Origin: Gammaproteobacteria bacterium
Lineage (GTDB): Bacteria > Pseudomonadota > Gammaproteobacteria > UBA4575
Length of the DNA: 64,000 bases
Assembly (NCBI GenBank): GCA_965243395.1
Contig: CBDEUS010000001.1
Coordinates: 96,001-160,000 of the forward strand
Reading direction: 5' to 3'
Each line of letters opens with the position of its first letter. The stretch's first letter is position 1. The position numbers were made by a program, and so were the translations under genes. The notes beneath the pieces are model-generated. The model did no database searches, had not been told where the DNA came from, and was given only the letters and a program-made list of their open reading frames with translations. Below are positions 11,221 through 24,397 of the stretch, piece by piece.

Positions 11221-13473
11221 TTAAAAATATTCATCGTCACGCGCATCATAGCCACGAATGCCACGCTCTAGTAACTCACCAATTGGAGAGCCTATTTGGC
11301 CTAGGCCCTTAAGGACCAATTGGAGTTCAATACTATTATTATAATCCTCATCGGTATTCTGATTATAGCGCCGCCCAGCTAGGCGTATTTTCCAGCAGCA
11401 AGTTTCGTATTCGACACCTGCTAACAGCTCTAAGTTGCGTTTTTCTTGCAGATCATAGTTCCAGCGCGTGACCGCTCTCCAATGTTCATTGATAGGCATT
11501 ACCATCGAAATATCGGATTGTTCTAAGCTTTCGCGTAGGCCGCTTACAGAATCTATGGGTTCAATATCGCTTCTGCGGTAGCGATAAGCGGCATTGAAAA
11601 CAAACTTGTTTTCACTTTCATAATTAAAGCGAATGGAATTTCTTTCGGTATGCTCATCGTGAGTATCATAAAGCGCAGAAGCAATGGCTTCCCAACGGTC
11701 ACTAAATCCAATTTTTAATTCAGCGGCCACTTCAGACGAATCTTCGTCTTCGCGAACTTCGCCGGGAAGTGTGACTTTCCGATCTCTAAAGTAAAAAATA
11801 CGTCCTAGGCTGGCGCGGAATTTTTCATCACCGTTTTCAAGGTCAAGCAGACGTGTCGTTAAACCCACACTTAGACGATCTGCATCTCCGATACGGTCAC
11901 TGCCACTGAAGCGGTCATCACGAAACAATTGTTCAAAGCCAAACTCATATTCGGCCGTATCAAATATTGGTATGTCCTCTTGGTCACGAAAGGGAGTGTG
12001 CAAATAAAATAAACGCGGTTCTAGTGTTTGAATGTGTCCCGCTTTGTTTAATTTTTTTTCAAAAATCAGTCCTGCATCAAGGTGAGCACTTGGCAAACTA
12101 CGTGTGGGTTTATCGTCTAAATCATCTCTACGATTTAAGTCATACTCAGTATGAGTCAGGCGTGCTCCTGGACGTATAAAATAGGCAGCGGTTTCAAAGG
12201 GTCGTTCAAGTTCTATGCCTAAATGTAAACGATCGCCATCAATTTGATCGTCGTGTTCAAACTGTACCCATTCCGTTTCTGAATTGAAATCAAAACCACC
12301 AGGCAGGTTGTAATAATTACTATCAATTTTAAGTTGTGGAACGCGTTTAAAAGGTTCGTTTTCATTCGGCAAACTGTCATCTACTAATTGGAAACTCTGC
12401 GCACGCGCTAAGAAGCTCCAATGTTTAGTGTAATATTTTAAATCGCCACGGCGCTCGATAAATTGCGTACTGCTAAGACCTAGACCATCACCAAGATCTT
12501 CAAAATACTGTTCATCAGAAACTTTGTTGTATAAAAGATCAAGTTGTAAATTTGGTGAGAATTGGCTGATATGTTCAAAGCTTGCCAAATATCGGTCATC
12601 TTTGAATTCACTGTCATCTAAATATTCAAGCCCGAGTTGTCCAAAACTTTTATTGTTTAAATAACGAAAGTTTGATTTTAATTGCAAACCACGATCGGTT
12701 AACAGGCGCGGCGCTATTATCGCGTCTCGGTTAGGTGCAATATTCCAATACCAGGGTGTTTCAAGTTCAAAACCAGAATCATTTGAGTTACCAATAGTTG
12801 GCGTTAGAAATCCTGATTTGCGACGATCATCAATTGGAAACCTGATCCAAGGTGTGTAGAAAATAGGTACACCTTTAAACTTTACTTTTACATCACGACC
12901 AATTCCATCACCTGTGGTTTTATCTAACTCAACTTCGTCAGCAGTTAACTCCCATGAATCATCACCTTCTTCGCAAGTGGTGTAGCTTGTGTCTTCAAAA
13001 CGAACAAAGTCAGCAGAAGTTCGTTCTATTTTTTTAGCCTTACCACGTGCATGTAATGGTTTGTAAAAGTAGTTGGCGTCTTCGGCTTTTGCGTAGTCCG
13101 TATCTAGATTTAGTTCGGCTTTTTCACTGTTGATAACGAGTTGTTGATCTTCTGATCGAACGTTCCCAGTTGCGGTTACATTTTTATTTTGATCGTTGTA
13201 CTCAAGTTTATCCGCATCAATTTTTTGCGGGCCCCTTGTCATTTGCACAGTACCTTCTAATGTAGCTAGGCCGCTAGCATCGCGTTTAGCTTGATCTGCA
13301 GTAAACTCTGCTGGAGTATTGGGGTCTAATTCAATGACATTCTGGCTTGATTGAGTAATGGCGCCATCTCCACATAGTCCATAAGGGTTATCTTCAGCAT
13401 GGCTCCAATTAAAGGTCAGGCATACCAGCCCAAAAATGGCTACATACAGCTTGCTTAAGGCTTTATTCAACAC
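11221..13473 (-). CDS. lptD: LPS assembly protein LptD
   Basis: YTTC, RKSGFL, PWYWNIAPN, LEPRLFY and YETCCW; probable GTG start near 13473, just before the signal peptide. Confidence 0.95.
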   Translation of the reverse strand: MLNKALSKLYVAIFGLVCLTFNWSHAEDNPYGLCGDGAITQSSQNVIELDPNTPAEFTADQAKRDASGLATLEGTVQMTRGPQKIDADKLEYNDQNKNVTATGNVRSEDQQLVINSEKAELNLDTDYAKAEDANYFYKPLHARGKAKKIERTSADFVRFEDTSYTTCEEGDDSWELTADEVELDKTTGDGIGRDVKVKFKGVPIFYTPWIRFPIDDRRKSGFLTPTIGNSNDSGFELETPWYWNIAPNRDAIIAPRLLTDRGLQLKSNFRYLNNKSFGQLGLEYLDDSEFKDDRYLASFEHISQFSPNLQLDLLYNKVSDEQYFEDLGDGLGLSSTQFIERRGDLKYYTKHWSFLARAQSFQLVDDSLPNENEPFKRVPQLKIDSNYYNLPGGFDFNSETEWVQFEHDDQIDGDRLHLGIELERPFETAAYFIRPGARLTHTEYDLNRRDDLDDKPTRSLPSAHLDAGLIFEKKLNKAGHIQTLEPRLFYLHTPFRDQEDIPIFDTAEYEFGFEQLFRDDRFSGSDRIGDADRLSVGLTTRLLDLENGDEKFRASLGRIFYFRDRKVTLPGEVREDEDSSEVAAELKIGFSDRWEAIASALYDTHDEHTERNSIRFNYESENKFVFNAAYRYRRSDIEPIDSVSGLRESLEQSDISMVMPINEHWRAVTRWNYDLQEKRNLELLAGVEYETCCWKIRLAGRRYNQNTDEDYNNSIELQLVLKGLGQIGSPIGELLERGIRGYDARDDEYF

Positions 13474-13567
13474 GGAATATAGTAGAGTAGGGTTAAATAG
13501 AATCAGAATATTTTTATTATTAATGCCTAAAGGCCCAGATATTGTAACAGTTTTAAGGTGATCAGCA

Positions 13568-14764
13568 TTGGTCGAATCTAAAAAGCATACCAGCAAATCC
13601 AGCAAGTTATCCCAGCAGCTATGGGGCAGTATGGTTGCCATTGTTGTTGCTGCGCTTATCGTGATGGTTTTGGTAGTCACTGATAAAGGCCCAGAAGCCA
13701 AGCTTGAGGAGTTGCCACCGCTTAAGGTTGTACTACTGGAAGTAGAGCGTCATGACGTATCACCCACCGAAGCATTAACAGGTCGTTTACAACCCGTAAA
13801 AACTGCGCAACTAAAATTTGAAGTGCAGGGTAGAGTCGAACAACGTTTGCTTGAACCTGGAGTATTTGTCGAACAAGGGCATGAAATTCTCAAACTTGAT
13901 GCACAAGATCTTGAAGATCAATTTACTCAAACACAATCTCAATATGATATTGAACAGGCAGGCATACAACGTGATCAACGTATGCTTAAACTAGCTCAAC
14001 AGAATTTAGAATTACAAAAAGCTGAAGTAAAACGTTATGAAAAATTAAATAACGATTCTCTAATTTCAGCATCACAACTCGATGCTGCGCGACAACAAAT
14101 GTTAAATTTAGATTCTCAAGTATCCGACTTGCAATATAAAGTAACCACAGCAAAGGCAAGATTATCTTTAAAACAATCTGAAAGGGATGTTGCTAAACGA
14201 AATTTACAACGTGCTACTTTGGTCGCGCCATTTTCTGGTTACATAAATGAAATAAGTACTGAAGTGGGAGATTTTGTTACTGCAACTCAAATTGTGGCGA
14301 CAATTGTTGATACAAGCTTACTTGATTTACATCTTGATGTACGTGGAGAAGTTCTGGCAGCATTAGAGTTACATCAAGAAATTGATGTAAAAGTGGGCGC
14401 AATAAAAATTATTGGAAAGTTAGTTGCCATGCAGCCTGACCCTAATCTTTCAACAAATACACACGCAATTAGAATTCGAGTACCGGGTGAAAAAGTTCAA
14501 TCAGGGATGCTGGCAAATGCAGAATTACCTTTGAGTAAACAAATGAATGTAATTACTGTGCCGGTTTCAGCAGTTTCCACAAATGCAGGTGAGAATTTTG
14601 TGTATAGATATGAAAATGGAACGTTAAAAAAACTTCCAGTCATATTAAATAACAGAGTAGGTAGTGAATATATTCTTACTGCTGGCGTTGAAGCGGGCGC
14701 AGCTATTGTTGCACGTGATGTAGCTGGGTTGAAAGACGGTCAGCGAGTGATCGCAAACTTTTGA
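13568..14764 (+). CDS. RND efflux membrane fusion (adaptor) protein
   Basis: N-terminal TM segment, lipoyl-like halves, coiled-coil hairpin and APFSG motif. Confidence 0.9.
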   Translation: MVESKKHTSKSSKLSQQLWGSMVAIVVAALIVMVLVVTDKGPEAKLEELPPLKVVLLEVERHDVSPTEALTGRLQPVKTAQLKFEVQGRVEQRLLEPGVFVEQGHEILKLDAQDLEDQFTQTQSQYDIEQAGIQRDQRMLKLAQQNLELQKAEVKRYEKLNNDSLISASQLDAARQQMLNLDSQVSDLQYKVTTAKARLSLKQSERDVAKRNLQRATLVAPFSGYINEISTEVGDFVTATQIVATIVDTSLLDLHLDVRGEVLAALELHQEIDVKVGAIKIIGKLVAMQPDPNLSTNTHAIRIRVPGEKVQSGMLANAELPLSKQMNVITVPVSAVSTNAGENFVYRYENGTLKKLPVILNNRVGSEYILTAGVEAGAAIVARDVAGLKDGQRVIANF

Positions 14765-14811
14765 AACCAATTTATTAGACAAGTATCCAAAATAGAATAG
14801 CTTAGCCGTAT

Positions 14812-15153
14812 TCAATCCATGCCCACTCCTTTTTTAAGCACCTTAACGCAGTAGGTGTTGAGGCTTTCGCTGACTTTTAATGATTCAACCGTGAGTTGTT
14901 CGTGTAGATTTTCACCAACGCGGATATTAAAGCGACCAGAGTATTTTTTACCGGTTGTTTTGGGTGGAAGTACAATATTTTCGTTCTCGTGAATTTTAAT
15001 CCACTCATTAACTAGCGCGCCCAACTTTTCATACACTTTAGTTTCATTCTTTCCGTGAACGCCTCCCAGTGCTAGACCGGGTAAACGGCCTATGTAGCAT
15101 TCATCCTGTTCTGACCACTCTACAATTTTCATATACCGTTTTCGTTTATTCAT
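14812..15153 (-). CDS. hicB: HicB-family antitoxin
   Basis: VEWSEQDECYIGRLPGL...GVHG N-domain; C-terminal RHH-like YSGRFNIRV...LH...SLN. Confidence 0.85.
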   Translation of the reverse strand: MNKRKRYMKIVEWSEQDECYIGRLPGLALGGVHGKNETKVYEKLGALVNEWIKIHENENIVLPPKTTGKKYSGRFNIRVGENLHEQLTVESLKVSESLNTYCVKVLKKGVGMD

Positions 15154-15343
15154 GGCTAATGAGCTCTATAGCTCGCATTACATCTTTGATCTGGTACTGC
15201 TTTGCTACTTGGTTATTGTTCCCGCTGATAGTGATATTAATGCCACTCGGGTGTTGGTAATTTCTGTGCCCGGATTTTGCGTATTTATTTACAAAATTTA
15301 CGGATTCCAAGTCTCTAATTAACGTAATAATTTTTGTTGGCAT
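15146..15343 (-). CDS. hicA: HicA-family toxin (mRNA interferase)
   Basis: 65-aa ORF overlapping hicB; KSGHRNYQHP and AKQYQIK resemble HicA motifs. Confidence 0.8.
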   Translation of the reverse strand: MPTKIITLIRDLESVNFVNKYAKSGHRNYQHPSGINITISGNNNQVAKQYQIKDVMRAIELISHE

Positions 15344-15346
15344 TTC

Positions 15347-15373
15347 AATATGGTACCATTATGGTACCATATT
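15347..15373. promoter_or_regulatory. perfect 27-bp palindrome, probable HicB operator
   Basis: AATATGGTACCAT-T-ATGGTACCATATT, beginning 4 nt upstream of the hicA start. Confidence 0.75.
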
Positions 15374-15398
15374 TCAAGCTTATCTTATTACTAATAAG

Positions 15399-15872
15399 AT
15401 GAGGTCAGTTTGGGAATCAATGAATGAGCTGAATATAGTTACAAGTGTAAATATTTCAGATGAAACTGTACCGAAAATAACATTCGATTCTGCACGCAAC
15501 AATTGGCAACATTTCCAGCAGAAAGTTATGGGGAACTCTATGCAGTTGGAGCAATACTTAGTATTTTCAAAAGAATTGCGACAGTATCAACGCGAGATTA
15601 AAGACAGCTTAAAGCTATATCAGCTTTCTCATATCGATTTTGAAGTGTTGCATTATTTATATGTTGGTTTAACACAACCCGGGTTTATTGCGAGTGAAGC
15701 CGATCTTAATAAGCCTCAGGTTACTCGTTCAATGCGGTGTTTAGAGAAATTAAATCTAATGGAATATGATTTAGTTGAACATGATCGTCGAGTAAGAGTT
15801 GTAAAAATCACAAATAAAGGTAAGCGTTTATATACACAACTTGTGCAATCAATAAAAAGAATAAATTTATAA
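15399..15872 (+). CDS. MarR-family transcriptional regulator
   Basis: Winged-helix C-terminus PQVTRSMRCLEK...DRRVRVVKITNKGK; true start may lie further downstream. Confidence 0.8.
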   Translation: MRSVWESMNELNIVTSVNISDETVPKITFDSARNNWQHFQQKVMGNSMQLEQYLVFSKELRQYQREIKDSLKLYQLSHIDFEVLHYLYVGLTQPGFIASEADLNKPQVTRSMRCLEKLNLMEYDLVEHDRRVRVVKITNKGKRLYTQLVQSIKRINL

Positions 15873-15953
15873 AATACTTTTGTGAGCGTTAAAGATGTTA
15901 TTTAGATGCTTTACTTAAAACATTACGGTTAACAGTTATAGGTTTATTAAATT

Positions 15954-16181
15954 ATGAGTACAAAAGGAAGTGAAATTAAAAATCTAAACAGTGAAGATAG
16001 CGCAATACTGAATAGAGAAGGTTGGTTTCTTCTTACATATTACCAAACAAAAGATAATCCATCGGGGTCTCGAGCACATAAATTAGCAATAGATAAAGCC
16101 ATGTCTGTGGATCGAAAAGCTGGGCTTCGCATCCATAAAAAAGGTGAATATACTGTTTTTGAAGTTTGGGAACACTGGTAA
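15954..16181 (+). CDS. hypothetical protein
   Basis: 75-aa ATG-initiated ORF in an otherwise empty interval. Confidence 0.5.
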   Translation: MSTKGSEIKNLNSEDSAILNREGWFLLTYYQTKDNPSGSRAHKLAIDKAMSVDRKAGLRIHKKGEYTVFEVWEHW

Positions 16182-16427
16182 GTAACTTTTGTTCCTAAAA
16201 AAGGGCCTGCCTTCTATCGTATAAAAATAAGCTAGTCAGTATTAACCGAATACTCGCTTATCAAGCCACTCTATTTTATCTGACATTTGCGATTTCGTAT
16301 CTTGATCGCATGTACTTATTAAGCATTTCAAAATTCGGATAACTTTTTGCTTGGGGTTGCGTTAAACTAAAATCATTATTACTTGTCTGTATCTATTTGG
16401 GGGCTTTTTGAAACTGAATATTCGATT

Positions 16428-19400
16428 ATGGGCATTATAAATTTTTCAATTAAGAATCCGTTAGTCGTAAATCTTTTCCTAGTTCTCATTATTGTCTTAG
16501 GGGTAATTTCTTGGCGCAGTATGCCGCAGGAAATGTTCCCGGTAGTAGATATTGATCAGGTTCGTATTAATACTGAATTCGAGGGTGCGCCACCGGAAGA
16601 AGTTGAATCCCAAATTACTATTCCGATTGAAGAAGAGTTAGATGGCCTTGCTGATATTGATGTGATTACCTCCGAAAGCAATGAAGGCATTTCCAAAATT
16701 ATTATCAAGCTAAAGCCAGACGCAGATGTGGATGAATTTGTGCGTGATTTGAGATCTACGGTGGACGCAATTACTGATTTGCCCGATGAATCTGAAAGAT
16801 CTGATATCACGCGTTTGAAAACGCGTTTCCCTGTTATCAGTATGAGTGTTTACGGGGACGCTTCAATGGGCACATTAGTAGAAGCGGCTAAAGATATTAA
16901 AAGCCGTTTACAACAAATTGATGGTGTAGCCAGTGTAAGTATTGCTGGAGAACGTGAATGGGAACTTTGGATCGAAGTAGATCCATTTGCAATGTCCGCA
17001 CGTAAGGTTTCTTTATCTGTCGTGATATCCGCATTACAAAATAATCTTCGTGATCTTCCTGGTGGGTCGTTGAAAGCATCTGAGGGAGATATTTTATTGC
17101 GTGGCAAGGGTGCCGCACCAAATATAGAGGCGACTAAAAGAATTGTATTGCGTAGTGATAATAATGGCGGGCAATTAGTCTTAGATGAAGTAGCCGATGT
17201 ACAGCTCAGATTGGAAGAAACAAAAACATTAGGGCGGTTTAATAATAAACCATCAGTAAATTTAACCGTTACCAAAACAGCAAAAGCATCTACTATTGAA
17301 GTTTCAAACTTAGTAAGAGAACTTGCGTCAGAGTTACAAGAAGAGCTACCTAAAAATATACAGGTTGGATTATTTAGTGATTTATCGATTTATGTCAAAA
17401 CCCGTTTAGAAACTTTGAAGTCTTCTGGAGCAGTAGGTTTGTTCCTAGTTCTCTTGTCACTTTATTTATTCTTAAATTTTAGAGTGGCAGCCATTACAGC
17501 GTTAGGCATCCCAGTCTCTTTCTTAGTTGCTGTAATCATCATTAATTATCTTGGTTACACCATAAATATGGTTTCCATGTTTGCGTTTTTAATCGCGCTG
17601 GGAATGATTGTTGATGATGCCATTATTGTTACGGAAAATACGTATCGCCATATGGAAGAGGGCATGCAACCCATTCCAGCTGCGAAAGCGGGAGCGGGAG
17701 AAGTATTTTGGCCCGTAATGGCCTCAACCTGTACAACCATCGCAGCTTTTCTACCGATGTTTGGTGTATCAGGCACCTTGGGTTTATTCATTCAGGTAAT
17801 CCCCGTTGTAGTGACTGCTGCGTTGTTGGGTTCTCTTCTTGAAGCGTTTATCGTTTTACCATCTCATTCTGCTGAATTGTTGCGTGTTGCGAAACACAAA
17901 AAACGCAACAGAATAAATTGGCAAAAATGGCTTGATAAATATGTAACAGTGGTGAAATACGCGTTACAAAATCGATATTTTGTATCTGCTGTTACGGTAG
18001 GAGTGTTAAGCGTTGTTCTAGTATATTCAAAAATTCATATGCCATATAACCAATTTGGTGATGTAGAAATTGGTCAGTTTCTTGTCAATATTGAAGCACC
18101 TAATACTTACAGTACTGAAGATACTACTCAACTTGCCATTCAAATCGAAGATAAAATGAATGCAGTATTTCAAGAAAATGAATTAGATACTCTATTAACA
18201 AATGTTGGTGTGATCTTAATTGATTTTAATCGCCTGAAGTTGGGAAGTAATTACATTCAGTTTGTAGTCGATCTGAAAAAACCAAAACCGAAAGGATTTA
18301 TAGAGCGTTTTGTAAGTCCAATAGTGAATTTAAAATTTTCATCCACTGGGGTGCGTGAACGAAGTACAGAAGTTATTTTAGATGAAGTACGAGAAAGTGT
18401 TGCGACCATTCCAGGGATACAGCGCTTTTCTATATTGCGTCCTCAAGGTGGACCAGCAGGATCCGATATTGAAGTTGGTATAGTTGGCAAAGAAACTGAA
18501 AAACTTTTAGCTTTATCTGGTGAAGTTGTGACATTTTTGCGACGAGTTCCAGGCGTAAAAGATGTAAGACAAGACTTAGAGCCAGGAAAACTTGAATATC
18601 AGTACACAGTCAATTCACGTGGTCGTGAGTTAGGTTTAACTCAAGCTCAGATTGCTGACGCTGTGCGCACAGGCTATTTAGGCTTAGAAGTAATGCAAGT
18701 GAATTGGGAAGCTGATCGCTATCCTGTAAGAGTGATATATCCAGATACTATTCGTGAAGATGGTGCAGGATTAAAACGTTTGCCCATTACATTGGAGGAT
18801 GGTGGAACCGTTTATCTAGGCGAAGTTGCAGATATTGAGTTGGGCAGAGGCTTGGGTGTTGTACAAAGAAGAAATTCACAACGATTATCATTGATAACGG
18901 CAGAAGTAGATAAAGAAGCCATTACACCTTTAGAAGTAACGGAACTGCTAGCAGAAGAATTTAAGACTTTAAGCGATGATCATTATGGGTACTCATTGTT
19001 ATTTTTAGGCGAAAAGAAAGAAGCACAAGATTCCTTTAATGATATTGGAAATATGCTGATTGTTGCGCTGGCTATAATCTTTTTTATTCTAGCCGCATTG
19101 TTTAAATCATTGTTGGATCCATTTGTAATTATGTTTGCCATTCCGTTTGCTATCGTTGGAGTAATTGTTGGGCATATGTTATTTGGATATAACCTACAGT
19201 TTTTGTCTATGATTGGTTTCCTAGCCCTTACAGGGATAGTGGTGAACGATTCATTAATATTTATCGATTTCGCTAAAAAGCGAATTGCTGCAGGCGCAAG
19301 TTGTTTTGATGCTTTAGTAGATGCAGGACGCGTACGCATTCGGCCTATTCTTTTAACCACTGTAACTACGTTCTTAGGCATATCGCCTTTAATCTTTTTT

Positions 19401-19571
19401 GCCAGTGGTCAAACTGCTTTCTTGTCGCCCATGGCTGTGAGTTTAGGGTTTGGTCTTATATTCGCAACCATATTGATATTAATAGTACTACCGTGCTTTT
19501 ACATGATTGCAGATGACTTAAGAAATTATACTTATGCAAGGTTTAACAAAATGAAAACTATTCATGCATGA
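16428..19571 (+). CDS. RND efflux transporter permease (AcrB/AcrD/AcrF family)
   Basis: GMIVDDAIIVTEN, GIVVNDSLI and RIRPILLTT; about 1050 aa; ATG at 16428. Confidence 0.95.
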   Translation: MGIINFSIKNPLVVNLFLVLIIVLGVISWRSMPQEMFPVVDIDQVRINTEFEGAPPEEVESQITIPIEEELDGLADIDVITSESNEGISKIIIKLKPDADVDEFVRDLRSTVDAITDLPDESERSDITRLKTRFPVISMSVYGDASMGTLVEAAKDIKSRLQQIDGVASVSIAGEREWELWIEVDPFAMSARKVSLSVVISALQNNLRDLPGGSLKASEGDILLRGKGAAPNIEATKRIVLRSDNNGGQLVLDEVADVQLRLEETKTLGRFNNKPSVNLTVTKTAKASTIEVSNLVRELASELQEELPKNIQVGLFSDLSIYVKTRLETLKSSGAVGLFLVLLSLYLFLNFRVAAITALGIPVSFLVAVIIINYLGYTINMVSMFAFLIALGMIVDDAIIVTENTYRHMEEGMQPIPAAKAGAGEVFWPVMASTCTTIAAFLPMFGVSGTLGLFIQVIPVVVTAALLGSLLEAFIVLPSHSAELLRVAKHKKRNRINWQKWLDKYVTVVKYALQNRYFVSAVTVGVLSVVLVYSKIHMPYNQFGDVEIGQFLVNIEAPNTYSTEDTTQLAIQIEDKMNAVFQENELDTLLTNVGVILIDFNRLKLGSNYIQFVVDLKKPKPKGFIERFVSPIVNLKFSSTGVRERSTEVILDEVRESVATIPGIQRFSILRPQGGPAGSDIEVGIVGKETEKLLALSGEVVTFLRRVPGVKDVRQDLEPGKLEYQYTVNSRGRELGLTQAQIADAVRTGYLGLEVMQVNWEADRYPVRVIYPDTIREDGAGLKRLPITLEDGGTVYLGEVADIELGRGLGVVQRRNSQRLSLITAEVDKEAITPLEVTELLAEEFKTLSDDHYGYSLLFLGEKKEAQDSFNDIGNMLIVALAIIFFILAALFKSLLDPFVIMFAIPFAIVGVIVGHMLFGYNLQFLSMIGFLALTGIVVNDSLIFIDFAKKRIAAGASCFDALVDAGRVRIRPILLTTVTTFLGISPLIFFASGQTAFLSPMAVSLGFGLIFATILILIVLPCFYMIADDLRNYTYARFNKMKTIHA

Positions 19572-19685
19572 ATGTTGTGTGATCGAGAGTAATTTGTATC
19601 TATATAAATTTGTTGCAGTACATTCTTATCTATTTATCTTATAAATTAATACCTCTATTTAAGCTTCACTTATTTTTAATAAATT

Positions 19686-19988
19686 TTGCTTCCATCAAAA
19701 AAAGAAATTTTAGAATCTAACCCTCCATTCCTAATGGAACATCCAGCAGGTGACTGGTCTTTAATAAAAAAAATATCAAAAGTTAATGAGGGTCTTAATT
19801 TCACTGTTTTATACATGAATGAAAATACATTCTTGCAACGCGATATCTTAATTGATGTACCACCATTTTATGTCGGTGCTGATGTGTGGGAACTCGATCA
19901 TGGAACGGTATTGATGACATTGGAGCATCCAACCCTTAGTGAACATCCTGCAAAAACTATGTGGGAAAAGTGGAAGCATAGTCGTTAG
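19686..19988 (+). CDS. hypothetical protein
   Basis: 100-aa ORF; no family recognised; start uncertain. Confidence 0.5.
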   Translation: MLPSKKEILESNPPFLMEHPAGDWSLIKKISKVNEGLNFTVLYMNENTFLQRDILIDVPPFYVGADVWELDHGTVLMTLEHPTLSEHPAKTMWEKWKHSR

Positions 19989-20039
19989 CAGTTAATCGCA
20001 TTAATCAAAAAATTTATAAATAAAAATCTGGAACTAAGT

Positions 20040-20645
20040 ATGAAAACCATTGAAGCTATATATAAACGTCGTGCAGTAAAGCATTTTGATAAAGATCATA
20101 AACTGACAAAAGAAGAGGAAACTCAGTTGTTTGAAGCTACTATCCAGGCACCTACTAGTTTTAATATTCAGCACTGGCGTTTTGTAATACTTCGCGATTC
20201 GCAATTACGTGATCGTATTCGCACTGAGTTTGGTAATGATCAATCACAAATGACGGATGCCTCGTTGCTTGTGTTATTTACTGCGGATGTGAACGCATGG
20301 AAAAAGAGTCCTGAACGCTATTGGAAGAATGCGCCCAAGGAAGTTGCAGAATTATTAGTTAACTGGATGGGACCTTTTCACGAAGGCAAGGACTGGTTGC
20401 AGCGAGATGAGGCACAACGCTCGATAGGTATGGCGATGCAAACCCTCATGCTTGCAGCACAAGAACTGGGTTATCAATCTTGTCCGATGATTGGGTTTGA
20501 CCATGAAAAGGTCGCGGAATTAATCAACTTACCTAAAGATTATGTAATAGGTCCGATGGTAGCGATTGGTAAAGGAATTAAAGAACCATGGCCGAAACCA
20601 GGACAGATTCCTTTAGACGAGCTTGTTGTAGAAAATTCATTTTAA
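20040..20645 (+). CDS. nitroreductase family protein
   Basis: RRAVKHF, APTSFNIQHWRFV and GYQSCPMIGFD. Confidence 0.92.
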   Translation: MKTIEAIYKRRAVKHFDKDHKLTKEEETQLFEATIQAPTSFNIQHWRFVILRDSQLRDRIRTEFGNDQSQMTDASLLVLFTADVNAWKKSPERYWKNAPKEVAELLVNWMGPFHEGKDWLQRDEAQRSIGMAMQTLMLAAQELGYQSCPMIGFDHEKVAELINLPKDYVIGPMVAIGKGIKEPWPKPGQIPLDELVVENSF

Positions 20646-20652
20646 AACATTG

Positions 20653-20682
20653 AATATCTACTATCGACCCATTGCGGATATT
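20653..20682 (+). repeat. 30-nt hairpin repeat, copy 1
   Basis: AATATCTAC TATCGACCCATT GCGGATATT. Confidence 0.8.
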
Positions 20683-20704
20683 AAGAAATGTAGGAATTTA
20701 TATA

Positions 20705-21100
20705 ATGGAACAAATTAAAAAAATTAATCATGTGGGTATACGGGTAAGAGATTTGGAAAAATCCCGTGCCTTTTATGAACAGCTTGGGTTTAAGTTCATT
20801 ATCGGTCCAATTGGCCCTGAACCAGTGGCCATTATGGAACATCCGTCTGGAGTTAATATAAATTTTATAATCAATGCTTCTGAAAATGCATCAGAGAAAA
20901 ATATTCTTATGGATGTGTCTGAACGACACACTGGTTACACACACATGGCATTGGAAATCACCGATCGAAATTCTGTATTACAACAGTTGAGTGATTTAAA
21001 TATCCCGATTACAGAGACAGTGGAATTAGAAGATGGAACAGTCTTTTTCTTTATTCGTGACCCGGATGGAAATGTGATTGAGTTTCATGATCCTGCTTAA
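20705..21100 (+). CDS. VOC/glyoxalase family protein
   Basis: INHVGIRVRDLEKSRAFY, THMALEI and FIRDPDGNVIEF; ATG at 20705 follows an AGGA RBS. Confidence 0.92.
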   Translation: MEQIKKINHVGIRVRDLEKSRAFYEQLGFKFIIGPIGPEPVAIMEHPSGVNINFIINASENASEKNILMDVSERHTGYTHMALEITDRNSVLQQLSDLNIPITETVELEDGTVFFFIRDPDGNVIEFHDPA

Positions 21101-21130
21101 TTATGATCCTTTCGACCCAAAGCGGACATT
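21101..21130 (+). repeat. 30-nt hairpin repeat, copy 2 (left arm degenerate)
   Basis: TTATGATCC TTTCGACCCAAA GCGGACATT. Confidence 0.8.
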
Positions 21131-21136
21131 GAAAGC

Positions 21137-21313
21137 ATGAATAACTTTATACATTTTCCGTCTTTCATCATTGCAATTTTAGTTGCTAGCGGAATTGCAT
21201 TTGCTGTTAGTTATTTTACCGGTCTTTCATTTGTAATTTGCCTACTTATCGTAATAGCGGCCATTTTCCTAAATGGAATCATTATTGCTTTTACAGAAGG
21301 CAAGAATAACTAA
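21137..21313 (+). CDS. small two-TM membrane protein (58 aa, not in ORF track)
   Basis: MNNFIHFPSFIIAILVASGIAFAVSYFTGLSFVICLLIVIAAIFLNGIIIAFTEGKNN; fills the space between repeat copies 2 and 3. Confidence 0.75.
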   Translation: MNNFIHFPSFIIAILVASGIAFAVSYFTGLSFVICLLIVIAAIFLNGIIIAFTEGKNN

Positions 21314-21315
21314 CT

Positions 21316-21345
21316 AATGTCCGGTATCGACCCAAAGCGGACATT
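21316..21345 (+). repeat. 30-nt hairpin repeat, copy 3
   Basis: AATGTCCGG TATCGACCCAAA GCGGACATT; 8-bp perfect stem. Confidence 0.9.
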
Positions 21346-21364
21346 TGAATAAGTTACTTTCGTT

Positions 21365-21730
21365 ATGGAAAAATTAGAAATTGGTGATCGCATTAAACTA
21401 TCAGGTGGTTATGATAATAACCCGCTTTGGTTGAAAGGCGGCAGTGGGTATAACGCAAAAGTGACAGGATTTTTTGACAATGAAACAGAGGGACGTAGAG
21501 ATGATTCACGTATTTCCGCATCAATAGAGTTTGATAAAGAAATTGAATATGAAGGAATTAAGGGGAAATATGGATTTATTTTGGGACGATGGGAAGGCCA
21601 AAAATGGGAAAAAAGTGGAACTGTTCATTGTCATATATGTAGTGTTCCTATTTCTAAAGCAAGTGATATAACAAAAGAAAATACTGTATGGGCAGAATCA
21701 CATGCACATTATGAATGCATTTACAGTTGA
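21365..21730 (+). CDS. hypothetical protein
   Basis: 121-aa ORF filling the interval between repeat copies 3 and 4. Confidence 0.7.
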   Translation: MEKLEIGDRIKLSGGYDNNPLWLKGGSGYNAKVTGFFDNETEGRRDDSRISASIEFDKEIEYEGIKGKYGFILGRWEGQKWEKSGTVHCHICSVPISKASDITKENTVWAESHAHYECIYS

Positions 21731-21749
21731 ATTAATTATTAAAAATTAA

Positions 21750-21779
21750 TACGTCTGCTATTGGCCGAATGCGGATATT
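21750..21779 (+). repeat. 30-nt hairpin repeat, copy 4
   Basis: TACGTCTGC TATTGGCCGAAT GCGGATATT. Confidence 0.8.
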
Positions 21780-21800
21780 TTTGAATCAGGATTTATACAT

Positions 21801-22301
21801 ATAAATACAAAAATAAAAACACCGCTAATTTATATCATCCTTATAATATATATAACGGGATGTCCTGCTGCGCATTTACAATCTAGAAATATTCAATCTC
21901 TTAAAGTTGGATTTGATGTTGATCAAAAACGAGAAAAATTACTAGAAAATAATGATGCAGTTGATGAGTTTGCAAAAATCATCAGTGATGTTATGGAATC
22001 TGAGAAATTCAAATTATCTCTGAGTAATACCTCATATGGTTTAATACCGCATACAGGTCATACTCAGAATCTAATTTTTACACTTACGAATAATTCTCAT
22101 GTTAGATGTGTGATCATGATTTCAAAAACATATTTTTCTGCGAATTTTACTGAATTAGAATCCGCTCCTGAAACTAATATGTTTAAAACAAATGAAGATG
22201 ATATTGCAATGATTGAAAATGCTGTTATTAAACTAAAGGAGTCTGTTGAAAAGACGTATCCAGAGCGATCGGTTAAAATATCCAATTTTTATAATAATTA
22301 A
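21801..22301 (+). CDS. putative lipoprotein with ATA in place of the start codon (possibly decaying)
   Basis: The frame of ORF 21993..22301 stays open upstream; AGGA RBS at 21788, then ATA-NTKIKTPLIYIILIIYITGC with a lipobox-like Cys21. Confidence 0.6.
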   Translation: MNTKIKTPLIYIILIIYITGCPAAHLQSRNIQSLKVGFDVDQKREKLLENNDAVDEFAKIISDVMESEKFKLSLSNTSYGLIPHTGHTQNLIFTLTNNSHVRCVIMISKTYFSANFTELESAPETNMFKTNEDDIAMIENAVIKLKESVEKTYPERSVKISNFYNN

Positions 22302-22330
22302 ATGACCGCTATTGGCCAAAAGCGGTCATT
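22301..22330 (+). repeat. 30-nt hairpin repeat, copy 5 (perfect stem)
   Basis: AATGACCGC TATTGGCCAAAA GCGGTCATT; overlaps the preceding TAA by 1 nt. Confidence 0.9.
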
Positions 22331-22384: not shown

Positions 22385-24397
22385 TTAAAGTAAAGGCGCA
22401 ATTACCAAACTTACAATTGCCATTACGTTAATTAAAATATTCATCGAAGGACCTGAGGTATCTTTGAAAGGATCACCAACAGTGTCGCCCACCACTACAG
22501 CTTTATGTGTATCAGAACCTTTGCCACCGAGGTTTCCTTTTTCAACATATTTTTTGGCATTGTCCCAAGCGCCGCCGGCGTTGGCCATCATAAGTGCAAG
22601 CAGGACACATCCAAGCAGTGCGCCTCCCAACATGCCGCCCAAAGTTTCTGCGCCAAATCCAAAACCGACCACTACTGGGGCGATGACCGCTAGCAAACCT
22701 GGTGGGACCATGCGTTTTAAAGCAGCAGTGGTTGCGATATCCACACAACGCACAGTGTCAGGTTTTGCAGTGCCTTCTAGCAAGCCGGGGATTTCTTTAA
22801 ATTGACGTCGAATTTCTTTAATCATATCGAATGCCGCATCACCCACTGCTGTCATCGTCATCGAAGCAACAAGAAATGGAAAGATGCCACCAATAAATAA
22901 ACCAATCAGTACCATTGGATTACTTAAATCTAAAACAATAGAGCCGCTACCGTGAGTACTTACTTCCGCCAGGAAAGCTGTGATGATGGCAAGTGCTGCA
23001 AGAGCCGCTGCACCAATGGCAAACCCTTTTCCAATTGCAGCTGTAGTATTGCCGACTTCATCTAACTCATCTGTGATTTTGCGGACGTCTTCACCAAGCT
23101 CGGCCATTTCTGCAATACCACCCGCATTGTCTGCAACCGGACCATAGGCATCAATTGCCATAGTGATGCCAACGGTTGCAAGCATTCCGACTGCTGCAAT
23201 ACCTACGCCATAGAGATCTGCAAATTGATTCGCAAAGAAAATAATTGCGGCTATGCTCGCTATAGGAACAACCACTGACTGCATGCCAGTAGCTAAGCCT
23301 GAAATCATTACGGTTGCCGGCCCTGTTTCACCACCTGCAGCAATTTTTCTAATTGGGCTTCCACCTGTGTAGTACTCGGTAACCAAGCCAATAATGATTC
23401 CACCTACTGCGCCAGATAGTACCGCTACCCAAACACCAGTGCTTATGCCGAGTTGTGTGATTACAAAATATGCTGCAATGATAAATATTATCGCAGCAGA
23501 AAAAGTTCCAATGCGTAATGCTGTGGCAGGTGATTTACCTGAAACAATTTTTACCAGAATGATTCCAATGATAGAACAAACGATTCCGGTAGAAGCTAAA
23601 CCTAAAGGTAAAAACATTAACGTTGATTTTTCGCCTAAGCGCTCAAGGATCGCAGGTCCTAGAGTTGCGGCAATGGCTATGGTTGCAATGATGGAACCAC
23701 AGTAAGATTCGAATATATCAGAACCCATGCCAGCAACATCACCCACGTTATCCCCAACGTTATCCGCGATGACTCCAGGATTACGAGGGTCATCTTCGGG
23801 AATTCCGGCTTCAACTTTTCCAACAAGATCGGCACCCACGTCCGCACTTTTAGTGTAAATGCCGCCACCCACACGTGAGAACAGTGCAACGGTAGACGCG
23901 CCCATTCCAAACCCATGAATAACGTTTGCCGTTGCTGGGTCACGTCCGAACATGAGATACAAAGTCCCTAAACCCAGTAAGCCCATGGCAGCTACGGTCA
24001 AACCCATAATGGAGCCACCAAAGAATGCGACATTTAAAGCCGCATCTGCACCATGTTCTTTTGCGGCAGAGGTAGTGCGCACATTTGCGCGTGTAGCGGT
24101 ATACATTCCGATGTAACCCGCGGCAGATGAAGAAATTGCACCAATTATGAATGCGATTGCGGTGTTCGCACCCAGATCTGAAATCCATATTGCCGCCACA
24201 ACAAAGGCAGCAAAGATATACATGATAGTGTATTCACGACGCATAAAAGTCATGGCACCTGTATGAATTTCTTCAGCAATTTCAAGTACTTTGCCGGTTC
24301 CGGCCGAGTACCTTAAAACAACGCGGTAGATAATGAATGCTGAAATCAGGCCTACTATCCCCAGGATGACGGGTAGTTGATGCATGGATAAGGTCAT
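22385..24397 (-). CDS. hppA: membrane-integral pyrophosphatase, K+-dependent, probably Na+-translocating
   Basis: [32 protein letters not shown] and [14 protein letters not shown]. Confidence 0.95.

Follow-up and report, generated by a model that had tools for sequence, protein, structure and literature searches.

A 30-bp repeat that separates single genes in a gammaproteobacterial array and in distant bacterial groups suggests an undescribed integron-like way of shuffling genes

The stretch of DNA analyzed here, in the following called the window, comprises 64 kb (C1:96001-160000) of a gammaproteobacterial genome of the UBA4575 lineage (G000; 2.58 Mb, two contigs, 38% GC). Between a conserved region with an RND transporter gene and the gene hppA it contains a short array of genes separated by five related 30-mers, which start at 20653, 21101, 21316, 21750 and 22301, all reside on the plus strand and are spaced by 448, 215, 434 and 551 nucleotides (nt). 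These positions, the shared orientation and the periods had been given in an initial annotation made from the sequence alone and are borne out. The same is true for its statement that every interval between two sites holds a single co-oriented open reading frame (ORF) and that a nitroreductase precedes the first copy, on which ORF map and Pfam agree. Finding the same repeat between genes of distant groups suggests an undescribed integron-like way of shuffling genes. Sites with the centre CGACCC (window sites 1-3) are labeled B and those with the centre TGGCCG (window sites 4-5) are labeled A. Gene calls are simple ORF proxies throughout, and these are weakest in GC-rich genomes. The locus is made up as follows (aa, amino acids):

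16383-19571, plus strand: gene for an RND (AcrB-family) transporter (PF00873, E 5e-184), conserved left flank
19686-19988, plus strand: 100-aa ORF without Pfam family, last conserved gene on the left; homology to the nearest relative, G012, stops at 19975
20040-20645, plus strand: nitroreductase ORF (PF00881), array unit 1
20653-20682, plus strand: site 1, type B, 7 of 9 stem pairs kept
20705-21100, plus strand: VOC/glyoxalase-family ORF, 131 aa from ATG (PF00903, E 3e-13)
21101-21130, plus strand: site 2, type B, left arm lost (1 of 9 pairs), centre and right arm intact
21137-21313, plus strand: 58-aa hydrophobic ORF, no Pfam family
21316-21345, plus strand: site 3, type B, intact (8 of 9 pairs; folding z -4.3)
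21365-21730, plus strand: 121-aa ORF, no Pfam family
21750-21779, plus strand: site 4, type A, partly decayed (5 of 9 pairs)
21801-22301, plus strand: lipoprotein-like ORF with signal peptide and ITGC lipobox, no Pfam family; lowest GC of the array, 28.7%
22301-22330, plus strand: site 5, type A, last site; 9 of 9 stem pairs, near-perfect 32-nt palindrome (z -6.6)
22385-24397, minus strand: hppA, H+-pyrophosphatase (PF03030, E 2e-253), conserved right flank; 86-99% protein identity in the genus

A degenerate core pattern is matched six times in the window against 0.01 matches expected, and none of 100 shuffles of the window attains this number. The six matches correspond to the five sites, site 5 being found on both strands because it is a near-perfect palindrome. 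Stop codons lie 7, 0, 2, 19 and -1 nt before sites 1 to 5, and the next genes start 22, 6, 19 and 21 nt after sites 1 to 4. The tight packing described initially is thereby confirmed in its range (-1 to 19 nt after stops, 6-22 nt before starts), but the spacing in front of the lipoprotein-like gene requires an unusual start: its frame contains no ATG, GTG or TTG before 21993, the position of the first ATG, and a distance of 21 nt is obtained only with ATA at 21801. Either this ATA serves as the start codon or the start codon may have been lost. The region 21780-21993 encodes a textbook signal peptide and lipobox (…LIIYITGC). GC content ranges from 28.7% to 41.3% per array unit with a mean of 35.2% for the array as compared to 38.6% for the window. 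With 7 promoter-like sequences vs 14.4 expected, the array shows no enrichment of these.

Two 12-bp arms and an asymmetric 6-bp centre make up the site, a 12-6-12 imperfect palindrome whose design is clearest in copies from GC-rich genomes, where it reads AATGTCCGCTTT CGACCC AAAGCGGACATT. The left arm (AATGWCYGCTWW) is variable, the right arm (AAAGCGGACATT) is near-invariant, and the centre is CGACCC in B and TGGCCG in A sites. With two inverted arms, an asymmetric centre of 6 bp and sites in direct repeat within the array, the layout of a tyrosine-recombinase core site is present. Window copies 1 to 5 retain 7, 1, 8, 5 and 9 Watson-Crick pairs in the 9-bp stem, which leaves a usable stem in three of the five, and folding compared with that of shuffled sequences gives z-scores of 0.56, 0.23, -4.3, -0.15 and -6.6. 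The hairpin reported in the initial annotation therefore holds for copies 3 and 5, which fold better than shuffles, but not for copies 1, 2 and 4; the element common to all five is not a hairpin but the centre with the right arm. A set of 219 B sites gathered by the centre alone (the reversed-sequence control yielded 4) leads to the same picture, as the right arm is nearly invariant and variation in the left arm is one-sided. A change from T to A at stem position 5 creates an uncompensated A-A mismatch in 68 of the 219 sites, and a change from C to T at position 7, again in 68 of 219, results in T-G. As left-arm changes are one-sided, there is little true covariation. Constraint lies on the sequence, mainly on the 18 nt that centre and right arm form together. 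Consensus matches in five genomes amount to 8.1-8.6 of 9 positions for the right arm and 6.7-8.0 of 9 for the left arm. On average, 6.29 of 9 stem pairs are of the Watson-Crick type in G000 and 6.89 in the recombinase-bearing relative G019, a difference that is too small for site decay to be used as the mark of a lost enzyme.

While the window has single sites only, many arrays elsewhere combine an A and a B site 35-85 nt apart into a composite of 70-113 nt. A is a diverged inverted copy of B with complementarity at 7-9 of 12 loop positions, and the minimum-energy fold of composites (81-123 nt folded) is a single long hairpin made imperfect by mismatches and bulges instead of a pair of small ones. 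The folding energy is -27 kcal/mol (z -5.6) for a composite from Noviluteimonas and -24.4 kcal/mol (z -5.8) for one from a Pantoea plasmid; in G000 it reaches -12.9 kcal/mol (z -2.6) on the coding strand vs -7.3 kcal/mol (z -0.3) on the other. In these predicted folds, the composite would be attC-like in shape and REPIN-like in layout. Across the genus, the spacer of about 50 nt in A-spacer-B composites (…GGTTGGAATCA…ACATACAAG.GCAA…) is conserved, as seen in locus L159 2150-4450, which corresponds to C1:233.1-235.5k of G000, minus strand. A peculiar case is present in G019, where the left-arm decamer TATGACCGCT occurs in about 15 tandem copies that end in an otherwise normal A site (L195 13510-13690; C1:1016.5k). 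This run is a microsatellite that has grown from one site arm.

Searching G000 with a profile derived from 87 seed matches gave 99 places at E <= 1 and 81 at E <= 0.01. The latter fall into 16 clusters, two of which are single sites, and one-gene periodicity is found at about a dozen loci. Although ORF proxies cover 91% of the genome, 76 of the 81 sites are located outside of them. Among ORFs within 150 nt of a site, 103 are co-oriented with it and nine are opposite, a count that leaves out 12 orientation-ambiguous sites and the five inside ORF proxies. The median distances are 6 nt from stop to site and 23.5 nt from site to start. Gaps of less than 1.5 kb between neighboring sites number 56 vs 3.8 expected by random placement, with a maximum of 10 in 1000 trials. 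Given clustering, co-orientation and gap lengths, the motif is not scattered like an ordinary repetitive extragenic palindrome (REP). The profile scan proposed along with the initial annotation has thus extended its one-gene-per-interval architecture from the window to the whole genome. The cargo is diverse: the 68 site-flanked ORFs assign to 58 Pfam families, none of them twice, with GNAT proteins, methyltransferases, nucleases, patatin, LysR, HxlR and many DUFs as examples. Larger cassettes in G019 encode proteins of the beta-lactamase family (PF00144) and with metallo-beta-lactamase fold (L192 5791-7149 and L194 9215-10522). The xerD and xerC genes of G000 each have, at a distance of 2.5-3 kb, a B/A pair of sites with one ORF in between (xer genes and site pairs: C1:422916-423420, C1:426417-427334; C2:247854-248501, C2:250961-251932), and sites again lie 3.6-4.6 kb off xerC in G019 (297167 and 298139, with xerC at about 301.7k). 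This proximity could reflect a conserved hotspot or something more.

When a single mismatch is tolerated, the B-type 18-mer can be found in 13 of the other 14 genus members, in 19 of 24 genomes from the family and, outside the family, in two of 16. In all of the ten relatives examined, the stretch beside hppA differs from that in the window, and the window's cassette proteins are encoded there in none of them. The nearest relative, G012, has an HppA that is 99% identical in protein, and its DNA identity of only about 85-87% identifies it as another species. The two genomes are colinear over window positions 12800-19975 (84.8% identity) and again from 22359, i.e. 28 nt past site 5. Between these flanks, G000 has 2.4 kb with five sites and G012 has 8.8 kb with at least ten sites plus about 15 other ORFs; no matches other than those of site to site link the two interiors. 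The content of the interval from the RND gene to hppA, for which the initial annotation had called for such a comparison, has hence been replaced wholesale between fixed flanks. Of a second array in G000 (C1:231-237.5k), the left flank alone is conserved in five relatives, and its composites of about 110 nt match 13-36 places per genome in the genus. At the DNA level, nothing in the other 14 genus genomes matches the VOC, 58-aa, 121-aa or lipoprotein ORF, and the 121-aa protein occurs in a single one of 56 family genomes, namely G000. The nitroreductase gene is different in being present in 12 of the 14 other genus genomes with 74-86% DNA identity and in at least three contexts. Homology of the G012 copy to the window is limited to 20031-20659; it begins 9 nt ahead of the ATG and includes the first 7 nt of site 1, and in G012 the gene is followed by a decayed version of the site. 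The flanks of this G012 locus map to C1:519.4-520.4k and 521.1-522.5k of G000, which has other DNA there.

Cassette copies bounded by sites were found when 165 loci with 615 sites were compared all against all by blastn. Four of the 146 internal alignments of 150-3000 nt terminate at sites at all four ends: a cassette of 494 nt is 99.8% identical in two arrays of G019 that are 1.8 Mb apart, one of 460 nt with 97.6% identity is duplicated inside one array of Noviluteimonas, and the other two units are common to different species with 83% and 76% identity. The two near-identical pairs show one pattern: the left arms of the upstream sites differ, sequence identity sets in at the centre or immediately ahead of it and includes the entire downstream site, and the copies diverge directly after the right arm of that site. 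In one of the between-species pairs, the site in front of the unit is of type A in one species and of type B in the other; here, identity begins with the right arm.

The repeat is not restricted to this lineage. An exact 29-nt B pattern, for which chance expectation is well under 1 by our own calculation, was found in at least 114 stretches of a species-level genome collection. Carriers in culture, with 61-68% GC, include Sphingomonas segetis, S. daechungensis, S. cremea, Caulobacter sp. 17J80-11, Lysobacter niastensis, L. arvi, L. dokdonensis, Noviluteimonas lactosilytica, N. gilva and N. caseinilytica. Metagenome-assembled carriers are labeled Nitrospinaceae, Nitrospirota, Burkholderiales, Micavibrio, Zetaproteobacteria and others, bin labels which can be wrong. 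Among the matches listed, 50 of 114 stretches have a GC content of at least 50%, so the AT-rich site is maintained against host composition. The N. caseinilytica array comprises 65 sites in 36 kb and includes 17 of the 19 strict matches, and Caulobacter has three arrays with B sites only. No neighboring gene is conserved, as no family among 665 ORFs near sites in the 114 listed loci is present in more than three loci, and ORFs of unknown function at the array edges in Noviluteimonas and Caulobacter have neither a Pfam family nor homologues near other arrays. A phage origin was rejected on the basis of zero matches of the 29-nt pattern in viral contigs. On plasmids we found variant hairpins only (nine Pantoea and two Pseudomonas records), with the same stem located between small accessory genes on Pantoea megaplasmids and a B/A pair bracketing two small ORFs on a Pseudomonas cerasi plasmid. 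Plasmid pEuc1 of Pantoea eucalypti carries paired hairpins with a GTCCGC/GCGGAC stem and other loops between GNAT, VOC, ABM, GST and hydrolase genes (250-255 kb; L175), which possibly represent a sister family of the sites in megaplasmids of enterobacteria. Full-text literature searches outside subscription journals and supplementary files turned up no account of either the site or arrays like these.

We consider it about an even bet (probability roughly 0.5) that the repeats are the junction sites of an integron-like cassette system that has its own site and no tie to the integron integrase, with the window array as an orphan. A site-specific recombinase would carry out strand exchange at the centre or immediately beside it. 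As a result, the left arm would stay attached to the gene upstream, and the gene downstream would take along the centre and the right arm. Promoterless ORFs would leave and enter arrays singly and would accumulate in hotspots, one of which would be the stretch from the 100-aa ORF to hppA. Most likely the window array is currently immobile and comparable to attC clusters without integrase, because G000 lacks the only recombinase family found abutting sites in relatives. Erosion of the left arm is already under way in three of the five window sites. The initial annotation had proposed a separate gene-capture system. Delimitation of single ORFs, clustering and replacement of the interval stand, whereas recombination at the sites and the enzyme do not have the same footing: that the exchanges are site-specific, that crossover occurs at the centre and which enzyme acts are matters we infer. 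The more far-reaching proposal of a second cassette-capture system, independent of integrons, with a 30-bp 12-6-12 site, two centre classes, non-IntI recombinases of its own and a range of several phyla, including the Alphaproteobacteria, for which a 2016 survey of 243 genomes reported neither integrons nor attC clusters, is put forward more tentatively and with somewhat less confidence; a divergent family of tyrosine recombinases would be its first candidate enzyme and the window one orphan array.

This family was identified in relatives and consists of proteins of about 378 aa. In G019, the genome richest in sites, two paralogs with 47% identity bracket one array; one recombinase gene starts 175 nt from the first B site, and the other has its stop codon 8 nt from the last A site. 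G003 contains an intact copy with a B site 6 nt past the stop, a fragment of a second copy across that same site and another fragment 47 nt from a site. All three intact close copies thus reside within 175, 8 and 6 nt of a site. The catalytic residues Arg, Lys, His-x-x-Arg, His and Tyr are kept in 11 aligned members. The family scores weakly on PF00589, its sole solved relative by sequence is archaeal XerA (E 2e-6), and none of 15 relatives in a large protein collection is named beyond 'tyrosine-type recombinase'. It was found in six of 41 genomes, all of which have sites and which include the four highest copy numbers (99, 71, 70 and 44), and in none of 19 site-free genomes. As the relatives are not independent samples, this co-occurrence is suggestive only. 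The initial annotation had recommended a search for a co-occurring recombinase, and this search has been successful for some relatives but has not provided a dedicated candidate in G000, which has only a canonical XerC, a canonical XerD and three phage-type integrases.

Other enzymes were sought and set aside. The window has no match for PF00589, PF00239, PF01797, PF01548 or TIGR02249 in a genome-wide search in which DDE transposases were not covered, and within these families the initial statement that neither integrase nor transposase is encoded there is correct. A RAYT or IS200-type HUH enzyme was rejected as PF01797 was found neither in G000 nor in five other carriers, with six of 14 control genomes being positive. 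An IS110-type enzyme was dropped because PF01548 was not found in five genomes, and a serine recombinase because PF00239 has no match in G000. A likeness of the half-site to a resolvase half-site consensus was not found in print and was given no weight. The Xer system was dismissed since the canonical dif of G000 (C1:959290) is unlike the site and XerC and XerD are ordinary. IntI, scored by TIGR02249 over its cut-off, was found neither in G000 nor in five other array-bearing genomes, and no intI remnants were detected near two large arrays.

Several observations weigh against the cassette system. Searches for the family of about 378 aa gave no match in G000 or four GC-rich carriers, so this family cannot explain the spread across phyla. 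No recombinase adjoins the large arrays of Noviluteimonas and Caulobacter, and a tyrosine- or serine-recombinase-like sequence is present in only seven of 114 cross-taxon loci among the matches listed. Five of 11 loci with the recombinase or its fragments have no site within 6-9 kb, and the nearest language-model clusters in the ESM Atlas are phage integrases. Taken together with its absence from some carriers, this means that the recombinase may belong to an integrative element merely targeting the sites. The block boundaries would fit a crossover at or beside the centre and, equally, homologous exchange within the invariant 18 nt. Most copies of the nitroreductase gene in relatives have a site upstream and none detectable downstream. 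Two metagenomic relatives of the 121-aa ORF (69% and 63% identity) are not accompanied by a site, and the one with 63% identity (L191 383-760) is followed by a classical attC-like inverted repeat (AGCTAAC…GTTAGCT), so the gene family also turns up in the integron cassette pool. The initial annotation had named three outcomes that would speak against its proposal, namely fixed gene content and order in relatives, homologues without the flanking repeat and a scattered motif; none of them was encountered in full, but the metagenomic homologues of the 121-aa ORF do lack the repeat. Excised circles or clean excision joints, for which a search had likewise been suggested, were not seen: read mapping of the window array revealed no excision product or recombination joint. 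Metagenome run X1 contributed a 928-nt contig of a relative over 19774-20701 with 53 differences and the sole joint over the array (21134 to 21316), which stems from one contig with 26 nt on one side, was flagged as unreliable and was not counted as evidence. In runs X12-X14, to which the same species name is attached, all matches were short (about 29-107 nt) and less than 90% identical.

The main rival is a REPIN/BIME-like family (BIME, bacterial interspersed mosaic element), i.e. REP-derived extragenic palindromes that spread alone, with cassette-like blocks arising from homologous recombination between copies. We regard this as unlikely, albeit the strongest of the alternatives. The sites are indeed short imperfect palindromes, nearly all of them outside ORFs (76 of 81), and an adjacent recombinase is missing in most carriers. 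The composites, with A and B as diverged inverted copies in one long hairpin, have the layout of a REPIN with its two inverted REPs plus spacer (PMC3337134), and in the genus they are repeated, spacer included, 13-36 times per genome. Spread of this kind does not agree with the absence of RAYT (PF01797) from G000 and five other array-bearing genomes, nor with the strong clustering, the one-gene periodicity and the agreement in orientation with flanking ORFs (103 vs 9). A single 36-kb array accounts for 17 of the 19 strict matches in Noviluteimonas. An identical 29-mer is found in several phyla, whereas REPIN-RAYT systems are inherited vertically within lineages according to bioRxiv 10.1101/2021.07.10.451892.

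It is less probable still that the sites are duplicated attachment or target sites of a small integrative element with the 378-aa recombinase, or of other site-seeking elements. Such an origin would account for recombinase genes that abut sites with their 3' ends in opposite orientation, at 8 nt in G019 and 6 nt in G003, for the second-copy fragment across the same site in G003 and for the similarity to phage integrases in the ESM Atlas. Furthermore, G019 has 14 PF00589 matches, several of them within a few kb of arrays. Left unexplained are the single ORF per interval in integrase-free arrays of up to 65 sites, the site in taxa in which the family was not found and the single-gene blocks common to arrays.

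Improbable to a slightly greater degree are RNA-level or operator elements that travel with genes, either as intercistronic hairpins in mRNA that would stabilize 3' ends or serve for processing or protein binding, or as operators of a conserved DNA-binding protein. Co-orientation with the genes and the median distance of 6 nt after stops would be as expected, wobble-compatible changes favor the sense strand (110 G-T vs 37 A-C cells in the 219 B sites), the G000 composite folds on the coding strand (z -2.6) and not on the other (z -0.3), and the lack of enrichment in promoter-like sites (7 vs 14.4 expected) is compatible with co-transcription. On the other hand, none of the five window sites is called as an intrinsic terminator on the plus strand, a T tract is lacking, and the one terminator-like site compares with 1.6 expected. 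The uncompensated A-A mismatch at position 5 (68 of 219 B sites), the near absence of two-sided covariation, a stemless site 2, conservation of sequence and not structure across phyla and an Rfam search of the site without match at E <= 1 also argue against a function in RNA, and neither array replacement between conserved flanks nor block boundaries inside sites would be explained.

A classical integron array lacking its integrase (CALIN) with unusual attC sites can be dismissed as very improbable, although each unit is one promoterless co-oriented ORF with diverse cargo, a relative of the 121-aa ORF precedes a classical attC-like site on a metagenome contig and composites elsewhere are attC-like in length and shape, because RYYYAAC/GTTRRRY boxes occur in none of the five 30-nt window sites nor in the consensus, IntI and its remnants are missing as detailed above, IntI over the cut-off occurs in six of 41 relatives of which five are devoid of the repeat, no site is found in the 20 kb around the IntI gene of G015, whose cassettes carry classical boxes, and the repeat is present in Alphaproteobacteria. 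In 243 genomes of the latter group, IntegronFinder is reported to have detected no integron, In0 or CALIN (PMC4889954). The initial claim that the repeat is not attC is thereby upheld. G015, a member of the same family, possesses a genuine integron (L155, C29:1-8018) with an IntI scoring 483 bits and, oriented divergently from it, cassettes that end in classical attC-like sites, and 38 copies of the new repeat elsewhere in its genome; the two systems therefore coexist without mixing.

Integrons are the textbook means of storing and reshuffling individual genes in bacteria, and entire groups, the Alphaproteobacteria among them, apparently lack them (PMC4889954). A cassette system based on the repeat described here, if true, would help to explain hypervariable gene arrays in integron-free lineages and would add a large uncounted pool of mobile genes, because attC-based tools cannot see it. 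It would also offer a sequence tag of 18-30 nt for mining cassettes from genomes and metagenomes and would point to a new pair of recombinase and site. Should the repeat be REPIN-like instead, its identity across phyla and its strict gene-by-gene periodicity would still be unusual for that class.

Known systems resemble the arrays to different extents. The dRS3 elements of Neisseria are short palindromic repeats that flank non-coding units, occur in a single genus only and have been associated with an IS110-type enzyme. Together with the intergenic mosaic elements of that genus they share with our sites that repeats bound exchangeable segments and are targets for the recombinase of an integrating element; here, however, single ORFs are bounded, the distribution extends beyond one genus and an IS110-type enzyme was not found (five genomes). 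The pdif modules of Acinetobacter plasmids consist of Xer-dependent, dif-like core sites with two arms and a 6-bp centre that flank small gene modules. The short two-arm core with a 6-bp centre, one better conserved arm and a recombinase in trans are points of similarity, but the site described here is unlike the dif of its own genome, XerC and XerD are ordinary and the sites are direct, not alternating. REPs, BIMEs and REPINs are likewise short extragenic imperfect palindromes, form inverted doublets that with a spacer give a long hairpin and reach tens to about a hundred copies per genome. The repeat departs from them in that RAYT was not found in any of the six genomes tested, in clustering with one-gene periodicity, in following gene orientation, in having the same sequence in several phyla and in single-gene homology blocks that end in sites. 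With integrons, finally, the arrays share single, mostly promoterless, co-oriented and functionally diverse ORFs, a palindromic site within a few nt after each ORF, hotspots that differ between species, a nearby integrase that is often missing and, in the composites of 70-113 nt, one imperfect hairpin. The site differs in being unrelated to attC, without R''/R' boxes and with the 30-bp 12-6-12 core as its minimal form. No IntI is involved, true integrons of relatives do not use the site, and it occurs in Alphaproteobacteria. Furthermore, arrays are present at about 16 loci per genome in the lineage, and it is the sequence itself, not the fold alone, that is conserved across phyla.

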